In this document: in pieces, positions 1-9,988 of the stretch
How positions within the stretch are numbered: the stretch's first letter is position 1
Layout of the letters: each line of letters begins with the position of its first letter
Source: a virus
Taxonomy: Duplodnaviria > Heunggongvirae > Uroviricota > Caudoviricetes
Reading direction: 5' to 3' (one strand)
DNA length: 10,477 nt
Virus record (IMG/VR): IMGVR_UViG_2711768074_000015
Translations under genes and position numbers: made by a program
The notes under the pieces: model-generated
What the model was told of the DNA's origin: nothing
Seen by the model: the letters and a program-made list of their open reading frames with translations, nothing else
Databases searched by the model: none

Positions 1-134
1 CGCTGTCGTTCTCAAAATCGGTGGAGCTGCATGACAAAGTCATCGGGCATTATCTGAACATAAAACACTATCAATAAGTTGGAGTCATTACCCAGATATC
101 ATCGACTCTCAAAGGTGCTCTGGATATCAACAGC

Positions 135-1442
135 TTGATCATTGACTACGATAATGAAGATGTCCAAAGTTATTGGGAAGACGTTGTATTACCGAACTTA
201 AATGATAATGGTAATAAAGCTCTCACAAGAGATGAAACAATAGCCTATATTAAAGACAGTAAGCCTTGTAGAAGAATTAAAAGATTAATACATGATGATG
301 CTGTGTTGGAGGAACAAAAGGATAAAAACTTCATTGCAAAAATGATTGCAGAATATGCTGTGTCTAGAAATGCAATTATTTCTAGCAACACATCTGGCAA
401 TGTCATTCGGGGTGATGAAAGCGGAGTAAAATGGATTCAATGTGGTAATATCTTTGTCTCCCTATTTCATAAGGTTCAAGATGATCATGAAAACGATGGA
501 GATAGGATTTGGCAAACTCTCAATGATTCTCTCATTGAATGGAAACCATCTTATTATCAGTTAATAAAATCTGAAATTCAGAATGCAATCGAAGCTGAGG
601 CTTTATCTTTTGTAAATCATTTGGCTAACGATCATTACGGTCAAGCTGCGTGGTTAAATGAGATATTAAAATCAGACTCGCCTGATATTAGATGTAGAAA
701 TATTGACTTTGTATTTGGTAATTTATCAGAAGAGCTTTATCAAAGACTTAAAAATAATAATACGCTGGATGAATTTATCAAAAGTGTTTTTGATAGCTAT
801 TCAAATGAATACGCTAACAGCGGAGTTGCTGCATTGCTCCAATATTGCTCTTCAAAAATGGATCTGCCATCAAATAATGATACTTATCACGAAATGTATC
901 ATGCTTTAAATATGAATTTGTCTTCAAAGAATTTTGAAGATGGTCATATTTCTACTGGCACTATTTTCTTTGATACAGAGTCGAACAAATGGTATTTATG
1001 TGTATCTGCGGCATGTGATTTGGTTCCTACTCAGGGTAACGACCCTCACCATGTAAGATTAAGTCCGCACAGGCTCATTAAAGTTCTGGAGCTTTTTAAC
1101 GCCAGTCAGAGTAAAGCATTGCCATTTGCTGAACATTCGAAATATATATATGTAATGCATAAAAATCAAAGAAAATATCTCTCTATTTTCGAAGGGGATA
1201 AAACGCTTCCTGTTGTTGATTATATGGTGGTGTTGAATCATGGAACAACAGTTGATGGCGAAGAAAAAAATATTATTTCTGCCGTGTTTTTAAGTAATAT
1301 GGATGGCAACGTGCAAAATGTTCCTGTCCGACTCAAACTTAAATCTCAACTGAGAACTGGTTATGCAGAAAGATATCAGGCTATAGCGTCTCAGTATAGC
1401 TCAAGGATTGGTGTGGATTATGTATCAATGATGCTACCATAA
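135..1442 (+). CDS. Hypothetical protein, AT-rich cargo gene, function unknown
   Basis: Uninterrupted 435-codon ORF in a markedly AT-rich block. There is an in-frame stop at 75..77, only a TTG at 135 with no clear Shine-Dalgarno, and the first in-frame ATG is about 70 codons in (near nt 342), so the 5' end is uncertain. I recognise no family signature. There is a weak D-x13-EEK pattern near the C-terminus (VVDYMVVLNHGTTVDGEEK) that could be read as nuclease-like, but this is speculative. Confidence 0.5.
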   Translation: MIIDYDNEDVQSYWEDVVLPNLNDNGNKALTRDETIAYIKDSKPCRRIKRLIHDDAVLEEQKDKNFIAKMIAEYAVSRNAIISSNTSGNVIRGDESGVKWIQCGNIFVSLFHKVQDDHENDGDRIWQTLNDSLIEWKPSYYQLIKSEIQNAIEAEALSFVNHLANDHYGQAAWLNEILKSDSPDIRCRNIDFVFGNLSEELYQRLKNNNTLDEFIKSVFDSYSNEYANSGVAALLQYCSSKMDLPSNNDTYHEMYHALNMNLSSKNFEDGHISTGTIFFDTESNKWYLCVSAACDLVPTQGNDPHHVRLSPHRLIKVLELFNASQSKALPFAEHSKYIYVMHKNQRKYLSIFEGDKTLPVVDYMVVLNHGTTVDGEEKNIISAVFLSNMDGNVQNVPVRLKLKSQLRTGYAERYQAIASQYSSRIGVDYVSMMLP

Positions 1443-1513
1443 TTATTATATTTTAGGCGTGGTGATTTTTTTTCGCCATGCCTATTTTATATTTATCATC
1501 ACAATGATGTTGT

Positions 1514-1930
1514 TTATTTTTGTTTAAGTCTTCTAAGCTTCATGCATTCTAATGAGAATAATAATAGAGTTGTGCTGTATATAAAGCCAGAGTTAGTTAA
1601 TAACTTTAAATTTAATGCTTCAGGATTTTCACTGAGAAAGTGAAAGGCATAAACTAAGTATACAGCTAAAGTAGCCGTTCCAATTGTTGGTCCAATATCG
1701 CCTTGATCATGAGGTTCAAGGTTTACATTGAACTTGAAGATTAGCCATTCAAATCCCCAAGTAAAAAAAACAACTAATATCATGGCTGCGAATAATTTCG
1801 CGATGTTATCTGCTGATGGATTCATCAGAACAGATTGTTTCTGAAAAAATTCACAAAGTGAGAGTCCGAAAAAAATAAAAAAAAGTGGTCTGGAACTAAA
1901 TTTTTCAAAAACTTTGAATAGGGTTTCCAT
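1514..1930 (-). CDS. Small integral membrane protein (3-4 predicted TM helices), function unknown
   Basis: ATG at 1930 with AAGG upstream. The 138-aa product is dominated by hydrophobic stretches (LFFIFFGLSLCEFF, AAMILVVFFTWGFEWLIF, ATLAVYLVYAFHF, FIYSTTLLLFSL). AT-rich like the neighbouring 435-aa gene, and convergent with it. Confidence 0.5.
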   Translation of the reverse strand: METLFKVFEKFSSRPLFFIFFGLSLCEFFQKQSVLMNPSADNIAKLFAAMILVVFFTWGFEWLIFKFNVNLEPHDQGDIGPTIGTATLAVYLVYAFHFLSENPEALNLKLLTNSGFIYSTTLLLFSLECMKLRRLKQK

Positions 1931-1968
1931 TTTCTTTACCTTCAGGATTATATTAGCTATTCTGATAC

Positions 1969-3198
1969 TTAGGCTACCAGAGCATTTGATCTTTGAGCTT
2001 GAACGTAATCACTCCACCATTGCATCAAACTCTGTCGCTCTATCAGATATTCTGCACGATTGTATGCTGCGATAATTTCATCTTTTTTCGAGTGGGCAAG
2101 CGCTGCCTCAAGAACTTCAGCTCTGAATTTACCAGACTCCTCTGCCGCTGTTCGTGCAATAGAACGCATACCGTGAGCTACAAGCTCGCCTCCGAACCCC
2201 ATTCGGATGATAGCTGCGTTGGCTGTTTGTTCATGCATATGATTAAGAGGCGCTTTTATGCTGGGGAAAACCCATTCTCTATGCCCACTTATTGATTTCA
2301 TTAATTCAAGGATGCGCAAAGCTTCTTTACTCAAAGGAACTTTGTGAAGCTTTTTCATTTTCATGAAATCAGCAGGAATGTTCCAAATGCTGTTGGTTGT
2401 ATCAATATCAGACCACCTTGCGCGAACGGCTTCACCCGGACGAACCCATGTCAACAATTGCCATTCAATTAGCATACGTGTTTCCAACCGGATTGACGCA
2501 TTCGTCAAAGATTCCATAAACCTTGGCAATTCGCTTGGGGGAAGGGCAGGCATATTTTGCTTTTTTGGTTTACTGAATCTTTGACCAAGGTTGTCAGCCG
2601 GGTTGAACTCAATAAGTTCTTCAGTAGCTGCCCACCGGAAGATTTCATTCAGACGTGAAATGATACGGCGTAGAGTTTCCAATACGCCTCGTTGCTCAAT
2701 AGGATCAAGGTGTTGTTTTAAGAGCTTAGGTCGGATCTCATTGATAGGGACATTACCCAGACCGGGAAAGACATTTCTCTCTAAGCTGCGCCAGATGTCT
2801 GCTGCATGGTCTTGTGAGATACCTGATGTCTTTACCTTCTCATCTAACCATTTCCGCGCTACGGCTTGGAGAGTGTGCTCAGTAGCACTCTTTAATGCCT
2901 TCGCCTTATCGTTGTTATGGATTTGGGGATCAACACCATTTGCCAGAAAGGAGAGATATTCATCACGTAAGGCTCTGGCTCTTGCAAGGGTAAGGTGAGG
3001 ATATGTCCCAAGGCTCATTTTGGTTCTTTTCTTGCTCACTGGTACTGCATACCTGAAATACCAATTTTTCTTGCCTCCTTTCGCCAAAGGAGCGATTCGT
3101 AGAATCAGACCATCACCGTCAAACAAGTTGATTTCTTTATCGGCTGGCTTGGTGCTTTTGATTTCAGTGTCAGTGAGCTTCTTAGCGATTTTTGCCAT
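1969..3198 (-). CDS. int: Tyrosine recombinase / integrase, phage P4 (CP4-57 IntA-like) family
   Basis: The translation has the P4-type N-terminal arm-binding region (MAKIAKKLTDTEIKSTKP...FDGDGLILRI...WYFRY). The C-terminal catalytic region is HGMRSIARTAAEE ... AHSKKDEIIAAYNRAEYLIERQSLMQWWSDYV, colinear with P4 Int as I remember it (catalytic Tyr in the AYNR-type motif). I chose ATG at 3198 (GAGG 7-12 nt upstream; product starts MAKIAKK) over the ORF-track start at 3240, which has no Shine-Dalgarno. Confidence 0.9.
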   Translation of the reverse strand: MAKIAKKLTDTEIKSTKPADKEINLFDGDGLILRIAPLAKGGKKNWYFRYAVPVSKKRTKMSLGTYPHLTLARARALRDEYLSFLANGVDPQIHNNDKAKALKSATEHTLQAVARKWLDEKVKTSGISQDHAADIWRSLERNVFPGLGNVPINEIRPKLLKQHLDPIEQRGVLETLRRIISRLNEIFRWAATEELIEFNPADNLGQRFSKPKKQNMPALPPSELPRFMESLTNASIRLETRMLIEWQLLTWVRPGEAVRARWSDIDTTNSIWNIPADFMKMKKLHKVPLSKEALRILELMKSISGHREWVFPSIKAPLNHMHEQTANAAIIRMGFGGELVAHGMRSIARTAAEESGKFRAEVLEAALAHSKKDEIIAAYNRAEYLIERQSLMQWWSDYVQAQRSNALVA

Positions 3199-3201
3199 TT
3201 T

Positions 3202-3238
3202 GGGACCCTCGGTTTTTGGACCCTTCTTAGTGGGTCCC
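3202..3238. promoter_or_regulatory. Three copies of a 7-bp GGGACCC-type motif at 15-bp spacing in the leader of the P4-like integrase
   Basis: GGGACCC at 3202..3208, TGGACCC at 3217..3223 and GGGTCCC (the inverse complement) at 3232..3238, immediately upstream of the integrase ATG at 3198. The alternative reading is a repetitive GP(T/K)K peptide if translation started at 3240. Confidence 0.3.
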
Positions 3239-3294
3239 ATTCAGGGTGCCATAACTCGTAGTTCTCAGCAATTCTCACTGGACGACAATAGACG

Positions 3295-3328
3295 TAAAAA
3301 AGCCCGCAGAGCTTGTGCTGTGTGGGCT
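3295..3328 (-). terminator. Terminator-like hairpin followed by a U-run on the minus strand, about 36 nt downstream of the tmRNA 3' end
   Basis: Minus-strand arms GCCCACACAGC / GCTCTGCGGGC (about 9 of 11 pairs, 4-nt loop) followed by TTTTTT (the plus-strand A-run at 3296..3301). The position fits the native terminator of ssrA. Confidence 0.45.
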
Positions 3329-3363
3329 TAGTAGACTTCATTGAACTTCAAACAACTAAAAAG

Positions 3364-3400
3364 TGGTGGAGCTGGCGGGAGTTGAACCCGTATCCGAAAA
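3364..3400 (-). ncRNA. ssrA: 3'-terminal fragment of tmRNA (ssrA), a partial copy acting as an att-site junction, not an intact gene
   Basis: The minus strand reads UUUUCGGAUACGGGUUCAACUCCCGCCAGCUCCACCA. The last 27 nt match the T-arm, acceptor 3' strand and CCA end of E. coli tmRNA as I remember it (...GGACGCGGGUUCAACUCCCGCCAGCUCCACCA). The 3 differences lie at the 5' side and one would break the T-stem. The sequence upstream of the fragment (3401 onward) does not resemble the tmRNA body. Confidence 0.75.
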
Positions 3401-3448
3401 ATTCTTAACCAATTGAATATTAATGATTTTTCTAATTTAAAATACCTC

Positions 3449-3470
3449 ACGTGCATTTTACGTGCATATT
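3449..3470 (+). repeat. Tandem direct repeat ACGTGCATTTT / ACGTGCATATT (11-bp period)
   Basis: Read directly: ACGTGCAT at 3449..3456 and again at 3460..3467, about 50 bp from the att junction core and just downstream of promoter-like TTGAAT / TAAAAT elements (3412..3442). Candidate arm-type integrase sites or an operator. Confidence 0.5.
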
Positions 3471-3656
3471 GTAGTACCTCTAACGTCCTGATTCTGTCCA
3501 ACATTTTGAAGTGTTTAGGCGCCACTGGGGCGGTGATTAGCGCTGTTTTGTGCTGTTCATAGCACTTCAAGACTATTCAATTCAGAGCAATCGTTGAAGA
3601 ATTACCCGTAAGGTAATATCATACTATTTAGGTAACTGCGGTTATCACCATCAAGG

Positions 3657-3691
3657 GCCACTGATGACGCTGTTATCATCAGTGGCTTTTT
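3657..3691 (+). terminator. Rho-independent terminator (11-bp perfect stem, 8-nt loop, T5 tail) on the plus strand
   Basis: GCCACTGATGA (3657..3667), loop CGCTGTTA, TCATCAGTGGC (3676..3686), then TTTTT (3687..3691). No plus-strand ORF of 60 aa or more lies upstream of it in the ORF track, so it would terminate a noncoding transcript or act as an attenuator for the operon starting at 3734. Confidence 0.6.
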
Positions 3692-3733
3692 GTACCTTCA
3701 CTGCACAGCCAGTGAAGTGTTGAGGAGACTAGC

Positions 3734-4075
3734 ATGAGAACAGTAGCGAGAAGATCGATACAGACGATTGAGCGTCGGACTCAACTCGTCAGTTCTTTTG
3801 TTGACTCAAACACAGCAAACGAGTTCTTCGTGAGAAGACTGAGTGATCGTGTCTCCCCGGCACGTCAGCTGTTTATTGTGACATTGAACAATGAGGTTCG
3901 TGACGGTGACGTGATCCCGTTCGCTGAGATCGCCATGAACAAAGAAAAATTGCGCTATGTTGTGAAGCCAGCAGATCAGTATCCTCAGTATGTAAGCAGT
4001 AATCTGCTGAAGAAAATTGAAGCGGCAATTGCTCTATACATGCAGAAGAACTACAGGGAAATTAACTACCATTAA
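3734..4075 (+). CDS. Hypothetical protein (113 aa), first gene of a two-gene cargo operon
   Basis: ATG at 3734 with GAGGAG 6 nt upstream. The next gene follows 11 nt downstream. I recognise no family signature. Confidence 0.6.
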   Translation: MRTVARRSIQTIERRTQLVSSFVDSNTANEFFVRRLSDRVSPARQLFIVTLNNEVRDGDVIPFAEIAMNKEKLRYVVKPADQYPQYVSSNLLKKIEAAIALYMQKNYREINYH

Positions 4076-4086
4076 AAGGTTGCTGA

Positions 4087-4854
4087 ATGGCTCCTGCGTT
4101 AATACCTTCATATAACAAGGACTTGAACATTACGCCATTTGGCGAAAAACGTCTTATTGAGTCATTCTATTTTTTCACTGCCGAGGCTGGCTTACTGAGG
4201 GCTGATGAGTACATTGTCAGTTCTGGTGAGTTTCAGTACTACTTGGATGTGTATCAACTGGGATGTTCCACCGACGACTTTTTTTTAGACTATGGCAGTG
4301 ACCTTCTTGATTCGAAGGTTCCAATGCAGGATCTGGTCAATACCCTCTTGGGTCTTGATATGGTAGACGATAACAAAACGATAAGAATAGGTCGTATACA
4401 GTTCAACGACTTTAATTTTATCGAAGAGAACGGTCAGATGATGACCGGAAAGCAAGTGAAAAGCGCTGTTATCGCACAGGATTTCCAATCAGCAGGTTTG
4501 GCGCGTGAGATCTATAAAATGCTTGCGCGAAAGCATGAGTTTCTCATCTGCGATAACATTCAAAGTATTGCCGGTGGTGCTCTTTGGGCTAGTAGCATCA
4601 TTCGAATTGCCGAGGTACGGATCTACAATTCACGCACGAAGAAATTTATGGACATACTTGGTCCAGGTGCGCGTGGCGTTTCAGGTACTTTGCCATGGAG
4701 TGCGAATGATCTGTCTGTAGATGAGATTGTTCGCTGGGGTCGTGCGTATGATGATGAAAACTGTTGTCGTCACATTGTACATGTTATCTGTAAGGACCGA
4801 CTCATTGACGATCAATTTCATGATTATGTTTCGATAGGTGGCGCGACAGAATAA
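4087..4854 (+). CDS. Hypothetical protein (255 aa), second gene of the cargo operon
   Basis: ATG at 4087 with AAGG upstream, and a terminator immediately after the stop. The segment SAVIAQDFQSAGLAREIYKML loosely resembles the Q/R-x-x-G-x-G/A motif of GNAT acyltransferases, but this is a weak pattern match, not a call. Confidence 0.6.
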   Translation: MAPALIPSYNKDLNITPFGEKRLIESFYFFTAEAGLLRADEYIVSSGEFQYYLDVYQLGCSTDDFFLDYGSDLLDSKVPMQDLVNTLLGLDMVDDNKTIRIGRIQFNDFNFIEENGQMMTGKQVKSAVIAQDFQSAGLAREIYKMLARKHEFLICDNIQSIAGGALWASSIIRIAEVRIYNSRTKKFMDILGPGARGVSGTLPWSANDLSVDEIVRWGRAYDDENCCRHIVHVICKDRLIDDQFHDYVSIGGATE

Positions 4855-4859
4855 CCATC

Positions 4860-4888
4860 AAAAAGACCCGGCATTTGCCGGGTTTTTT
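4860..4888. terminator. Bidirectional intrinsic terminator between the convergent cargo operon and the phage integrase
   Basis: Stem CCCGGC (4867..4872), loop ATTT, GCCGGG (4877..4882), flanked by AAAAAGA upstream and TTTTTT downstream, so it gives a U-tail on both strands. Confidence 0.7.
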
Positions 4889-4895
4889 CTTCAAA

Positions 4896-6074
4896 TCACT
4901 TCTTCATTCCAGATTCCATTGCGGTTTTCCCGTCGTATTCAGCCAGGTATTTACCGTAATTGCGGAACAGCATTTCCGGCCCCTTATGCCCCATCTGCCC
5001 GGCAAGCCAGAAAAGGTTTACACCCTGGCTAATGTGTCTGGTGGCGAATGTGTGGCGCGTCTGGTACGGGTTACGGTAGCGCACACCAGCTTTTTTCAGG
5101 GTCGGCACCCATGCTTTTTTACGGATAGCGTCGGCGTTCGTCCAGGGATCTCCCGTTTTCGGATCGCTGAATATGAACTCACTTTTCATAAAGGTGTATT
5201 GCTTCTGCGCCTGCAGGGCCGCCAGCGCCTCACTGTTCAGCTCCACCTTACGGGTACCGGCTTTTGTCTTGGTGCCTTTAAGTACCCCTACGACACTGGC
5301 CGCCTGTATGTGCGCTGTATTACCTATAAAGTCGATATCGGTCCAACGTAATGCGCATAGCTCAGAGCTGCGTAGCCCTGTATTGAAGGCGAAGCGGAAC
5401 AGATTCTGCCATTCCTGATACTTGCAGTGCTGATATATGGCACTGGTTTCCGCAGGCGCAAACGGATCAACTTCGTAATCGTCGGCGTTCGGTTTACTGT
5501 CGACCACGTGATACCGGCTGGCGCTGACAAGAGTTACCGGGTTAATAGTCAACAGGCCATCAGTTACAGCCTCATCAATGGCGCTGCGCAGAAATGACAG
5601 GTTATTCCTGATTGTTTTCAGCTTAGTTTTTCGGCTGGCTATCCAATTTTTTAGTACCGCAGGCGTCAATTCTGTTACATGTAGTTTATGTAGTTCTGAT
5701 AGTGCTGATAGACATTTTTCGTAACCGCCAATGGTTGACGGCGACAGATTGCGGTTCATGCAAATTTTCAGGTATTCATCAAGATAGGACTTAATATTTT
5801 GGGTTTTCTTTACTACACCGAATAACTCCAGTTTTTTGGAACTGGGGAAATATTTCGCATATTCAAACGTTCCGCTGGCGATCTGATTTTGTATCTCCCC
5901 TAGCAGGCGCTCAGCATATTTAATACCACGTGTATTTGCCTCAAGCCGAGACAGGGGCTCCCTGCAAAGAACCCCTTTATATGTGAAAGTGATAACTAGT
6001 GTTGAAGCAGTTTTATGCTTACGAATAGTTACTCCTCTTGGCAGAGATAATAATCCTTGTTCTTTCTTGCCCAT
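4896..6074 (-). CDS. int: Phage tyrosine integrase (lambdoid type, with N-terminal arm-binding domain)
   Basis: 392 aa. ATG at 6074 with AGAGG upstream. The C-terminus YQTRHTFATRHISQGVNLFWLAGQMGHKGPEMLFRNYGKY has the R-H-x-x-R ... Y catalytic pattern of tyrosine recombinases. The N-terminal block GVTIRKHKTASTLVITFTYKGV is typical of an arm-binding domain. The 5' end overlaps the 3' end of the upstream xis-like gene. Confidence 0.9.
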   Translation of the reverse strand: MGKKEQGLLSLPRGVTIRKHKTASTLVITFTYKGVLCREPLSRLEANTRGIKYAERLLGEIQNQIASGTFEYAKYFPSSKKLELFGVVKKTQNIKSYLDEYLKICMNRNLSPSTIGGYEKCLSALSELHKLHVTELTPAVLKNWIASRKTKLKTIRNNLSFLRSAIDEAVTDGLLTINPVTLVSASRYHVVDSKPNADDYEVDPFAPAETSAIYQHCKYQEWQNLFRFAFNTGLRSSELCALRWTDIDFIGNTAHIQAASVVGVLKGTKTKAGTRKVELNSEALAALQAQKQYTFMKSEFIFSDPKTGDPWTNADAIRKKAWVPTLKKAGVRYRNPYQTRHTFATRHISQGVNLFWLAGQMGHKGPEMLFRNYGKYLAEYDGKTAMESGMKK

Positions 6075-6238
6075 TTTGAAACCTCTATTAAGTCGACCCA
6101 GCGTTCTTTAACTCCGTCGACTTTTAATACATGAACCCCTTCTTTCCATATTCCTCTTTGTATCCGTTTGTTAACGGCATCAACCGTTTCTCCCGCGTCG
6201 CGGCAGTAGGTTGATATAGGCACGCAATCCAGCCCCAT
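6029..6238 (-). CDS. xis: Excisionase-like small DNA-binding protein (Xis/AlpA-type winged helix)
   Basis: 69 aa, immediately upstream of int and overlapping it by 46 nt. GAGGTGA lies 5 nt before the ATG. The sequence ...ETVDAVNKRIQRGIWKEGVHVLKVDGVKERWVDL resembles the lambda Xis core (ETVRRWVRE...PPVKDGREY), recalled from memory. Confidence 0.6.
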   Translation of the reverse strand: MGLDCVPISTYCRDAGETVDAVNKRIQRGIWKEGVHVLKVDGVKERWVDLIEVSKWARKNKDYYLCQEE

Positions 6239-6762: not shown

Positions 6763-7331
6763 TCATTCCGGATGCTCCTGAGCCACATTGAAATCGCCAT
6801 GATCACGACAAGGCATCACAACAAATTCAGGATTGCCATACATTGAGTTGATGATGGAATCAAACTGAATTCTGACCGCTTGCCCGTCACCGGAGGAACG
6901 TAACTGGACGGGAATAAATTTACGCTCACGACCAAACATCTTCTCTGGATAACTCAGGTAACCCGCCTGGATCACCGGGTGTGTACAGAGGTCAAATTTT
7001 TTCGGAATGATGCGTTCCAAATCCGGAAAACAACCGTCCACCAATTTAATGCCGGTAATGGACAGCCGGCGCTGAAACTGGTCGCGATGAACAGGATCGG
7101 CTCTTTACTAAAAATCAGCTCTGTCGTTTCGGCTTTGGCCGGGACGCCACCTTCGAACTGGACAATGATGTTTTTCTTCGTCCGGATGCCGTGAGTCATG
7201 CGCAGTGCTACGAAACCATTGGTTGCCTCAATATGTTTTGGCGTGATGTGAAGACCGTTCAGGTAATAACGAACGTCGTTTTTAGCAGCGCACACCAGAG
7301 CGGCGCGAATAAGTTTTGACTGGATGATCAT
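6763..7331 (-). pseudogene. Beta-sliding-clamp (DnaN) domain II-III-like protein lacking domain I, reading frame interrupted by a frameshift near 7045..7075
   Basis: The two overlapping minus-strand ORFs (6972..7331 and 6763..7044) are colinear with E. coli DnaN as I remember it: AAKNDVRYYLNGLHI...ATNGFVAL vs AHQDVRYYLNGMLF...ATDGHRLA; ILFIATS/ELIFSK vs FIFTSK; then in the second frame KLVDGCFPDLERIIPKKFD vs KLVDGRFPDYRRVLPKNPD and EFVVMPCR vs AYVVMPMRL. The frame switch falls where the plus strand reads GCCGG-TAATGGACA-GCCGGC. The start ATG at 7331 has a GGAGG Shine-Dalgarno and overlaps the upstream stop (ATGA). Confidence 0.55.
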
Positions 7332-8120: not shown

Positions 8121-8948
8121 TTACTTAACCTGAATAAATGGTGTGTTGGCACCGCTGGTCATGTATTGCGGCAGTGTACCGTTCCACTTGTTGATGGCTT
8201 CCAGCTCCATAACACCGGGGTTCTGGCGCAGAGCTTCACCGCGTAAACGAATAGCATCGGCTTCGGCCTGGGCTTTTGTGCGAATCGCATCTGCCTGTCC
8301 GGCAGCTTCCGCGCGCAACATGTTGGCTTCCGCTTCGCGCTGTTTTACTTCCTGCTCGCGTTGCAGGGTTTTCTGGTTCGCCGTGACTTTGGCATTAATG
8401 CTGTCGATAACAGTAGGTGGGTACTCCGGCTTACCCACATATGAGAGGCTCATTACCTGAATACCGATGGGCGTCATTTCTTCCTGAATGTCTTTAAGAG
8501 CTGCATCCAGCAGCTCAGACTTGCCGCCGTCGATAAATTTGTCGGTGGTCATTTTGCTGGCCAGTCGGTTGAGTGCGTCGGCTATCTTCTGGCGCAGGTC
8601 GGTGTCGGTAATGTCGTCCACGCCTTTGCGGTAGGTCTGAAAGACTGTGGTAACTTTGGATGGATCAACTTTGTAGGCCACGCCGATGTGATAGCCGATG
8701 GTTGTACCGTCACTCATCTGGAAACTGAATGGATCATCGTAGGTCTTCATCTGCTTAAAGGTCGGGAAGATGTAAACCTCAGTGTTCCATCCCGTCCAGT
8801 AGCGCCCAACACCGACCACTTCACCGACGCCTTTATCGTCGCCCAGTTTGTTTACTTTGATGCCCACATTACCAGGCTCAACGCGATCGCAACCGACAAG
8901 GCCAATGGTCGGCAGAACAAGGGCTAAAGCAAAAAGTAATTTTTTCAT
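8121..8948 (-). CDS. SPFH / band-7 (prohibitin-like) domain lipoprotein, predicted inner-membrane anchored
   Basis: Signal peptide with lipobox MKKLLFALALVLPTIGLVGC followed by Asp at +2 (the inner-membrane retention rule in E. coli). SPFH-like core, then a C-terminal Ala/Glu/Gln/Arg-rich coiled-coil region (QREQEVKQREAEANMLRAEAAGQADAIRTKAQAEADAIRLRGEALRQNP). The start ATG overlaps the stop of the upstream small TM gene (ATGA). Confidence 0.8.
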   Translation of the reverse strand: MKKLLFALALVLPTIGLVGCDRVEPGNVGIKVNKLGDDKGVGEVVGVGRYWTGWNTEVYIFPTFKQMKTYDDPFSFQMSDGTTIGYHIGVAYKVDPSKVTTVFQTYRKGVDDITDTDLRQKIADALNRLASKMTTDKFIDGGKSELLDAALKDIQEEMTPIGIQVMSLSYVGKPEYPPTVIDSINAKVTANQKTLQREQEVKQREAEANMLRAEAAGQADAIRTKAQAEADAIRLRGEALRQNPGVMELEAINKWNGTLPQYMTSGANTPFIQVK

Positions 8949-9133
8949 CTTTTATCCTTAGAAAAAGAAAGACCCTTATAAATGGCATAAATGCAGGGCG
9001 GGGTCAGACACGCCAGAGCAAAGCCAGAAATCACTGCTACCGTATCCTTCATTGATATGAGGGCCGGAACGATTAATCCGTAAATACATGTGATAATTGC
9101 CAGTGATATAACTATTCTGAAATAAATGTTCAT
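8945..9133 (-). CDS. Small two-TM membrane protein (62 aa), translationally coupled to the SPFH lipoprotein
   Basis: ATG at 9133 with AGGAGG at ideal spacing. Two hydrophobic segments (IVISLAIITCIYGLIVPALI and VISGFALACLTPPCIYAIY). Its TGA overlaps the ATG of the SPFH gene. Confidence 0.6.
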   Translation of the reverse strand: MNIYFRIVISLAIITCIYGLIVPALISMKDTVAVISGFALACLTPPCIYAIYKGLSFSKDKR

Positions 9134-9193: not shown

Positions 9194-9586
9194 TCAGAAT
9201 GGTTTTGTTGCCATCAGTTCGTAATATCCGGCGCTCCATGTGTCATATTTTCTGAACCATTTTTCTGTATACTGTTTCCTGGCGATGAGTCTGCGCAGTC
9301 GTCTGATTGTTCGCTGGTGTGCGCGGGTATACTCTGTGGTTGATTCTCCACGTTTCCATATCTCATTCCTGTTGAAGATAAAACGCTTGTCAGGATAGCG
9401 TTGTCGGAATCCTGAACGTTCAAAAGCGCGGGTGGTCATAAAGAATGCCAGGTAACGAATTGCCGTTTTTCGGGTGAGGCATTTTTTTGTTCTTCCGTGG
9501 CGTGTTACAAAAAATAACGGGCCGACGGGTGTATCATGTTTCTGTAATGCCTGGTCAATGGTGCTGGCGGTGCGGTTGTCGATCAT
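9194..9586 (-). CDS. Hypothetical basic protein (130 aa)
   Basis: ATG at 9586 with GGAG upstream. Arg/Lys-rich C-terminal half. No family recognised. Confidence 0.5.
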   Translation of the reverse strand: MIDNRTASTIDQALQKHDTPVGPLFFVTRHGRTKKCLTRKTAIRYLAFFMTTRAFERSGFRQRYPDKRFIFNRNEIWKRGESTTEYTRAHQRTIRRLRRLIARKQYTEKWFRKYDTWSAGYYELMATKPF

Positions 9587-9772
9587 TTCTTTATTTCTCC
9601 CGAATAACGTTCATGACTCATTACTTCCCAGTTCCGGCCGTCGTCTTTCGATAACAGCCGCCAGCGACGGTTAACCTTCAGACTGAGATATCCGGTGCGC
9701 TGTATCCGATGCGGAAATATCCGTCGGCATCGGTACAACAACAGGACCTGCAATGCCTGCCGGTGGATCCGC

Positions 9773-9988
9773 TCAGGAATGCGTGTTGCTGTTAATGCCA
9801 CCGGTTTCCTCCTGAGCAGGTGCTGTTATCTGATACCCCGCTCTTTCTGCCAGCCGTATGAATGTATCCATGCTGGCAATCAGCTCGCCATCGCGGACTT
9901 TGCAGACACCTGTGACTTGGCCATTTTCAATTGTCATAACGATCTGCACTTTTTCGTGCACAACAGATACAGGGGATAAATTAGCCAT
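9773..9988 (-). CDS. Hypothetical small protein (71 aa)
   Basis: ATG at 9988 overlaps the stop of the upstream gene (TGATG), indicating translational coupling. No family recognised. Confidence 0.5.
   Translation of the reverse strand: MANLSPVSVVHEKVQIVMTIENGQVTGVCKVRDGELIASMDTFIRLAERAGYQITAPAQEETGGINSNTHS

Follow-up and report, generated by a model that had tools for sequence, protein, structure and literature searches.

What two genes are doing between the attachment (att) junction and the integrase gene of a lambdoid prophage is the question raised by a 10,477-nucleotide (nt) stretch of DNA from a tailed virus of the Caudoviricetes (IMG/VR record IMGVR_UViG_2711768074_000015), the whole of which is referred to here as the window. 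An original prediction, based on the letters of this stretch, had placed a coupled pair of open reading frames (ORFs) of 113 and 255 amino acids (aa) between the att junction and int, in the opposite orientation to int. The pair, gene 1 and gene 2, was found at exactly the predicted coordinates (Table 1), convergent with int. The window itself is an Escherichia coli-type chromosome stretch at ssrA, the transfer-messenger RNA (tmRNA) gene, and the cassette containing the pair is best read as a mobile accessory unit, or moron, that fills a cargo slot flanked by attP and int in a lambdoid prophage that integrates at ssrA.

A cargo slot with exchangeable contents

Among complete E. coli genomes (n = 5426), a related int gene (80 to 100% DNA identity) was present in 133 and the pair in only 10. 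At the same ssrA site, the slot was found in three states, the first two of them beside int genes 80 to 95% identical. It was empty in MS 115-1 and STECUZB006 (loci L067 and L068), with int about 330 to 360 nt from the neighbouring integrase gene; it held a single unrelated DUF4760 gene, on the other strand, in O26 RM10386, O55:H7 CB9615 and PSS-15 (L065, L066 and L069); and it held the pair in the window and in E. coli E110019 (L001). The DUF4760 protein had no convincing match in PADLOC (DrmMII, E 0.0025).

Comparison with the O26 and O55:H7 prophages carrying the other cargo placed the breaks in homology at 3481/3482 and 4923/4924. As homology to the O26 prophage runs to 3481 and resumes at 4924, the intervening 1442-bp block was swapped as a unit. 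Its GC content was 0.41 to 0.46, against 0.54 in the body of int. The pair is hence dispensable cargo that some phages carry and their close relatives lack at that position, and it has a predicted promoter and a predicted terminator of its own. The moron architecture claimed in the original prediction was borne out by this presence or absence as a unit in a slot that related prophages leave empty or fill with DUF4760, and the upstream hairpins and bidirectional terminator that it had described as insulating the pair were all located (Table 1).

Recurrence of the pair in other phages

Gene 1 lay directly upstream of the gene 2 homologue in all 63 fetched loci with upstream DNA, the sole exception to pairing being L044, where the locus is cut at a contig end. 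The two genes were separated by 9 to 23 nt (11 nt in the window) or overlapped, as in SSU5, and the pairing held down to 28 to 33% identity.

The position of the pair varied with the type of phage. The att-pair-int arrangement characterized the clade of the window (at least 90% identity), in which int variants were down to 68% identical. In a 77% clade from Enterobacter and Buttiauxella, the pair was located between the Q antiterminator and holin genes, antiparallel to both. It lay between the major tail protein and tail chaperone genes, or between the chaperone and tape measure genes, in Yersinia and other siphoviruses, and inside the baseplate module in Pantoea, Yersinia and Xenorhabdus myoviruses. 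SSU5-type phage-plasmids carried it between the lysis genes and parA at 28 to 33% identity, with the partner protein still recognisable (hhalign probability, 99.1%), and three Photorhabdus species retained it in a degraded prophage remnant next to cat. The Photorhabdus flanks (L020, L021 and L022) were 92 to 94% identical between species and the cassette only 68%, which suggests that the cassette was replaced there or is diverging faster than its flanks.

Relatives were detected in prophages of Escherichia, Salmonella, Citrobacter, Enterobacter, Yersinia, Pantoea, Photorhabdus and Xenorhabdus and in SSU5-type phage-plasmids, and the exact proteins of the window were encoded on at least 1000 public contigs. 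The occurrence of the pair at six or more positions in differing phage types indicated that it is a mobile moron rather than a core gene pair.

Two genes under purifying selection

Both ORFs are real genes under purifying selection. Ratios of nonsynonymous to synonymous substitution rates (dN/dS) were 0.02 to 0.17 for both genes in comparisons with relatives whose synonymous sites were near saturation. Clustering at 90% identity yielded 31 relatives of the 255-aa protein and 35 of the 113-aa protein, all from Enterobacterales. A GAGGAG ribosome-binding site (3723-3728) is located 5 nt ahead of the gene 1 ATG. The first 32 residues of the 113-aa ORF were among its best-conserved parts, indicating that the start used in RefSeq, which gives an 81-aa protein, is too short.

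In the PhiR12 phages, recorded with E. coli K-12 and C as their hosts, gene 2 is frameshifted by the loss of one base from a T8 run, and gene 1 is intact. This deletion was present in several independent assemblies and may still be a homopolymer sequencing error. The PhiR12 T7 allele provides a natural frameshift allele of the putative GNAT gene, making the cassette directly testable.

Predicted GNAT folds and sequence searches

Structure prediction pointed to a GNAT acyltransferase fold for the 255-aa protein, the model following the order beta1-alpha1-alpha2-beta2-4-alpha3-beta5-alpha4-beta6-7. Motif A, a Q/R-x-x-G-x-G/A sequence at the start of alpha3, was found as Q134-S-A-G137-L-A139, ahead of a helix at residues 138 to 149; the faint GNAT-like motif noted in the original prediction was joined by a predicted GNAT fold. 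G137 was invariant in 29 close relatives, with A136 and A139 nearly so, while Q123, Y143, D156, Q159, W167 and W204 were invariant across 39 diverse relatives.

The N terminus of this protein (residues 1 to 13; window positions 4087-4125) was predicted to be disordered, with a predicted local distance difference test (pLDDT) score of <50. M1, P3, K11 and L13 were kept in 36 to 39 of the 39 diverse relatives. A segment that is disordered yet conserved suggests a docking or substrate-like peptide.

The 113-aa partner was predicted to form a five-stranded sheet with a long C-terminal helix. The best structural matches of this model were GNAT domains, and the model resembles the N-terminal two-thirds of such a domain, without the Q/RxxGxG/A loop. 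Direct comparison detected no homology between the small and large proteins. Structural neighbours of the proteins included aminoglycoside, microcin C, bleomycin and sugar-nucleotide GNATs.

Neither protein had a match in Pfam or NCBIfam, and searches of PDB sequences, by single sequence or by profile, gave only chance-level matches for both; hence, no curated GNAT sequence model in Pfam or NCBIfam and no PDB sequence matched the 255-aa protein directly. PHROG 2594 and PHROG 3307, to which the two proteins belong, are both annotated "unknown function," and every public record says hypothetical. An exhaustive profile search of 1.84 billion representatives recovered only 56 relatives. The matching segments of the weakest of these, P0114, P0117 and P0111, exceeded the cut-off of Pfam Acetyltransf_1, which links the family to GNATs transitively at the sequence level. 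One of the three, P0114 (1429 aa), combines ParB-like domains with three copies of the gene 2 domain. Its gene lies on a 75-kb contig where the genes run in one direction and are mostly unannotated, a lysin-type Amidase_2 gene being among them; we read this contig as phage. P0114 resembles the "polyvalent proteins" of Iyer et al. 2017, which were interpreted there as conflict effectors that are injected and whose GNAT domains were predicted to act in protein modification (PMC5512222).

Two known classes were tested, without a family match to either. The 113-aa partner lacks the RHH/DUF1778 domain of the GNAT/RHH toxin-antitoxin class (no Pfam match, no PDB sequence match and a sheet-plus-helix model), and the 255-aa protein had no detectable homology to the toxins TacT, AtaT and ItaT. 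There was likewise no similarity to the Mom/Com module of phage Mu (hhalign probabilities, 1% for Mom and 0.2% for Com). No description of the pair turned up in literature searches on PhiR12, GNAT-based defence and two-gene acetyltransferase systems. As a kind of element, a cargo-slot moron with a gene for a GNAT enzyme is known; the two-protein family and its RNA leader were undescribed in the libraries and literature searched.

A conserved promoter and structured RNA leader

A sigma-70-like promoter was predicted upstream of gene 1. The promoter scan by itself was not significant (1 site versus 3.1 expected), and the call therefore rests on cross-clade conservation, the arrangement of a −35 element, a 17- to 18-nt spacer and a −10 element being kept in Pantoea, Yersinia and Enterobacter cassettes. 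The 140-nt promoter-leader region was 81 to 84% identical where third codon positions were only 51 to 57% identical.

The predicted leader transcript folds into three elements (fold z = −2.9). At the position of the 5′ hairpin, 20 of 47 unique loci had the motif TAAC-N3-5-GTTA, 83 to 102 nt ahead of the start codon; elsewhere it occurred about once per 14 kb. This palindrome was also considered as a lambda-type operator or MqsA-type site, and both were rejected on sequence and spacing. Among clades of 47 to 100% protein identity, the leader terminator was located 43 to 51 nt before the ATG in all but the antiparallel Q-holin clade and one locus, L046; it was absent from the Photorhabdus/Xenorhabdus and SSU5 clades. 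At the place of the third hairpin, other clades had stems of different sequence, as judged by inspection without scoring.

A covariance model of the leader was built from nine sequences. The raw alignment (MAFFT/RNAalifold) gave a poor consensus, and the model was needed to set the stem register. One match per locus was obtained at the terminator-leader position, including in eight further loci outside the training set, and no match in prophages without the cassette. In an alignment that was itself fitted to the model, 97.9% of cells were paired and six pairs exhibited compensatory change, with frequent G-U pairs. Helix 1, the 5′ hairpin, had 98% of cells paired and 2 compensatory pairs; helix 2, the terminator, had 4 compensatory pairs and many G-U pairs. 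Sliding the stem partners destroyed the pairing. Conservation above that of synonymous sites, the model matches and the compensatory and G-U changes indicated that the leader is a selected, strand-specific RNA element. A search of Rfam 15 detected no match in 3590-3733 at E ≤ 1, the matches to IsrM and tmRNA (see below) falling outside the cassette.

As a conserved promoter lies ahead of a conserved terminator, the main product should be an RNA of about 60 nt with the architecture of a small RNA (sRNA). Judged by its predicted structure, this short RNA would consist of the 5′ stem-loop, a single-stranded linker and the terminator. Inspection by eye for complementarity of the leader to both ribosome-binding sites, as in c4/antisense-type control, found none.

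At the other end of the cassette, the hairpin at 4861-4888 was detected as a minus-strand terminator in a terminator scan and, on the plus strand, as a match to the RsmY terminator stem of Rfam. An A-run before the stem and a T-run after it indicate that this terminator is bidirectional.

Proposed function and alternatives

We hold with moderate confidence that the cassette is an autonomous mobile unit encoding a prophage-expressed, dose-limited acyltransferase complex that acts in phage-host or phage-phage conflict. Transcription in the lysogen would start at the cassette's own sigma-70 promoter and proceed through the 5′ hairpin and the leader terminator, which would keep the level low, into two translationally coupled genes ending at the cassette's own terminator. 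The gene 2 product would be a divergent GNAT-fold, acyl-CoA-dependent acyltransferase, and the gene 1 product an obligate partner with a truncated, catalytically incomplete GNAT-like domain. Both proteins may act as one complex, in which the small protein would serve as a regulatory or substrate-presenting pseudo-subunit, and the complex would acylate a protein or an aminoacyl-tRNA-type target to the benefit of the lysogen or phage in conflict.

Repeated insertion into unrelated phages, strong purifying selection and a shared swap slot together mark accessory genes that confer a selectable phenotype. Were that phenotype phage exclusion or counter-defence, an acyl-transfer-based two-protein mechanism would be added to the known repertoire, together with a compact cis-regulatory RNA. 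A bolder proposal, offered tentatively, is that the pair founds a new two-component GNAT family of phage conflict, in which a catalytic GNAT and a pseudo-GNAT partner are carried as a portable moron by many of the temperate phages and phage-plasmids found in Enterobacterales. An undescribed promoter-proximal RNA attenuator or small RNA would gate their expression, with read-through only on a specific signal such as infection or induction.

Several observations weigh against the acyltransferase proposal. The motif-A glycine is lost in many distant members of the 255-aa family, so that the use of acetyl-CoA is not assured family-wide; neither protein had a match in PADLOC-DB v2 at E ≤ 0.1; and the location of the promoter upstream of the leader terminator leaves the production of full-length mRNA unexplained. 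The cassette is also co-oriented with late genes in most phages and could, hence, have a mainly late lytic function. On that account the pair would be a late-expressed host-takeover or counter-defence enzyme of lytic growth, comparable to phiKMV Rac, AcrVA5 or injected polyvalent GNAT domains and of no benefit to the lysogen. Co-oriented copies are embedded in the late tail and lysis modules of Yersinia, Pantoea, Xenorhabdus and SSU5-type phages, circularisation would place the cassette of the window downstream of the late operon, on the other side of attP, the gene 2 domain is related to the repeats of the giant ParB-containing protein P0114 on its phage-like contig, and phage GNAT effectors have been published (PMC7824862; PMC5512222). 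We nevertheless regard a purely late function as improbable. Expression from the prophage is favoured because the cassette's own promoter and upstream terminator are kept even inside late operons, because the Q-holin clade has the cassette antiparallel to late transcription and because a decayed Photorhabdus remnant beside chromosomal genes has retained it in three species; the large gene is, in addition, frameshifted in the PhiR12 records. The lambda genes lom and bor and HK97 gp15 are described as being expressed from the prophage with their own promoters. That the proteins are core virion or tail-assembly components merely looking like cargo here is scarcely credible. The pair does lie within the tail gene clusters of several phages, but its position varies among phages, close relatives of this prophage lack it, it is antiparallel in one clade and frameshifted in PhiR12, and its predicted fold is that of an enzyme. 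The same six or more positions, orientation and frameshift speak against conserved core genes, the finding that would have undone the original prediction.

A toxin-antitoxin-like or abortive-infection module, in which the GNAT would arrest growth, for example by acting on aminoacyl-tRNA as TacT, AtaT and ItaT do, with the small protein as stoichiometric antidote and possibly as autorepressor at the palindrome, is doubtful. Its gene order is that of such modules, a small gene upstream of and translationally coupled to a GNAT gene, and the leader terminator would limit the dose. Several clades have a palindrome where transcription would start; that of the Photorhabdus clade, with a small protein of only about 42% identity, is a different one. 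The large gene was broken in two of 42 distinct pair variants and the small gene in none, but this 2-versus-0 asymmetry is not significant, as expected for a gene 2.2 times longer, and the presence of G-U pairs within the palindrome points to an RNA hairpin more than to a DNA operator. The family tests also went against such a module: the partner matches GNATs best in structure and shows neither an RHH/DUF1778 nor an HTH fold, and the 255-aa protein had no sequence similarity to any GNAT toxin in PDB, even by profile. GNAT toxins scored no better than unrelated GNATs against it, and members of its family, at 240 to 255 aa, are longer than TacT-type toxins, which are about 160 to 175 aa. The toxin-antitoxin-like idea in the original prediction thus gained no specific support, the partner being a GNAT-like half domain by its model. 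Lysogenic conversion through acylation of small molecules or envelope precursors (detoxification of antibiotics or toxins, or modification of nucleotide-sugars), with a change in host phenotype, is very unlikely. The structural neighbours noted above include GNATs acting on such substrates, and the att-int position is a classic slot for conversion genes; however, no specific likeness to resistance or sugar-modifying GNAT families was found in NCBIfam or Pfam, and a GNAT-like partner and tight attenuation would be unusual for resistance enzymes.

The att junction and flanking genes

The window contains two adjoining elements at ssrA, the coordinates of which are collected in Table 1. The minus strand of 3364-3390 corresponds to the final 27 bases of ssrA, reading ...CGGGTTCAACTCCCGCCAGCTCCACCA, within a partial Rfam match to tmRNA at 3364-3455. 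In E. coli E110019, a strain without the neighbouring island, the homologous sequence begins precisely at 3364, and the first base of the PhiR12 phage records corresponds to position 3375 of the window; these starts identify 3364-3390 as the att core, at which the lambdoid prophage begins. A tandem direct repeat, ACGTGCATTTT/ACGTGCATATT, is located at 3449-3470 within the conserved att arm and provides candidate arm-type binding sites for the integrase.

Table 1. Features of the window and of the alternative cargo in related prophages
Feature	Position	Strand	Remarks
P4-type-integrase island	1-3363		Adjoins prophage at shared att core
P4-type integrase	1969-3240	minus	Pfam Arm-DNA-bind_3, Phage_int_M, Phage_integrase
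ssrA (tmRNA) 3′-terminal core, att junction	3364-3390	minus	Common to prophage and P4-type-integrase island
Phage-side att arm	3391-3481		Kept in relatives with other cargo; 98.5% identity to O26 prophage up to 3481
Variable cargo segment, 1442 bp	3482-4923	plus	Promoter, leader, two genes, terminator, last 9 codons of int
Predicted sigma-70-like promoter	3594-3622	plus	TTGAAG-17-TATCAT
5′ hairpin/palindrome	3631-3646	plus	GGTAAC-TGCG-GTTATC; at predicted transcript start
Intrinsic terminator in leader	3657-3691 (hairpin 3657-3686)	plus	11-bp stem, 8-nt loop, T5; 47 nt before start codon
Third leader hairpin	3696-3717	plus	8 bp; just ahead of GAGGAG
Gene 1	3734-4075	plus	113 aa; PHROG 2594
Gene 2	4087-4854	plus	255 aa; PHROG 3307
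T8 homopolymer inside gene 2	4279-4286	plus	T7 (frameshift) in PhiR12 phages and two IMG/VR contigs
Bidirectional intrinsic terminator	4861-4888		Common to cassette and convergent int; 13-nt arms, 92% complementary
Prophage integrase int, lambdoid	4896-6074	minus	392 aa; Arm-DNA-bind_2, Phage_integrase
Excisionase xis	6029-6238	minus	69 aa; phrog_2917; early-left genes beyond
Alternative cargo, DUF4760, ~300 aa	L065 2085-2993; L066 2022-2945; L069 2025-2948	opposite strand	Positions in the related prophage loci

Both ends of the Salmonella sRNA IsrM were matched by Rfam at 3296-3373 on the minus strand, with 53 bits against a gathering score of 376. The match spans a terminator hairpin (3300-3314) and the sequence adjoining the ssrA core, and it probably reflects shared flank sequence and no IsrM gene. 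The distal cargo of the P4-type-integrase island (1-1930) was also variable. It contains a 435-aa ORF at 135-1442 (GC, 0.31 to 0.38), with no match in Pfam, PADLOC or NCBIfam, and, downstream of it, a 138-aa ORF at 1514-1930 that is hydrophobic by eye. In the O26 and O55:H7 strains, a response-regulator-receiver or DUF6119 gene takes the place of this cargo, with homology starting from 1419.

Beyond xis, the overlapping ORFs of 93 and 119 aa at 6763-7331 on the minus strand (phrog_3007) represent one gene, which RefSeq marks as frameshifted in E110019 and which is probably a pseudogene. E110019 also has an IS3-family insertion (L001 12204-13513) without counterpart in the window, at about 6592. 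The early-left operon contains further accessory genes on the minus strand, at 8121-9133 and 9583-9801. These encode an SPFH/Band-7 protein (8121-8948), the N terminus of which resembles a lipoprotein signal by eye; a 62-aa ORF (8945-9133), hydrophobic by eye and with a 4-nt overlap with the SPFH/Band-7 gene; and a 72-aa ORF (9583-9801) named in RefSeq as a ParE-family toxin-like protein.

Comparison with known systems

In being a self-contained unit between core genes, with a predicted promoter and terminator of its own, the cassette is like the phage morons lambda lom and bor, HK97 gp15 and stx in the Q-S slot, to which it adds a conserved promoter-proximal terminator and RNA leader. Presence and absence, alternative cargo in one slot and a lower GC content are shared with morons and with the cargo hotspots of P2 and P4 prophages (Rousset et al. 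2022, PMC9122126). It differs from both in that the cargo is a previously uncharacterised two-gene GNAT-like pair and in that one and the same cassette is found at many positions, in phages of widely differing types.

Type II GNAT/RHH modules (TacAT, AtaRT, ItaRT and KacAT) likewise have a small upstream gene coupled to a GNAT gene on mobile DNA. In the cassette, however, the partner appears to be GNAT-like rather than an RHH/DUF1778 DNA-binding antitoxin, with no detectable sequence homology, and the putative GNAT protein exceeds theirs by about 80 residues, is extended at both the N and the C terminus and has invariant residues of its own (Q123, Y143, D156, Q159 and W167). Phage Mu also has an operon of two genes, com-mom, at an end of its genome; the small gene comes first, the second encodes an acyltransferase of the GNAT superfamily (about 240 aa), and control is tight and multi-layered; Com, however, is a zinc-finger translational activator, and the cassette proteins are unlike Mom and Com in sequence. 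Phage-encoded GNAT folds in conflict contexts are also known from phiKMV Rac, AcrVA5 and the polyvalent GNAT domains (Iyer et al. 2017). In contrast to these single-protein effectors, the GNAT of the cassette would be a stand-alone protein with an obligate separate partner, carried by temperate phages under a promoter of its own.

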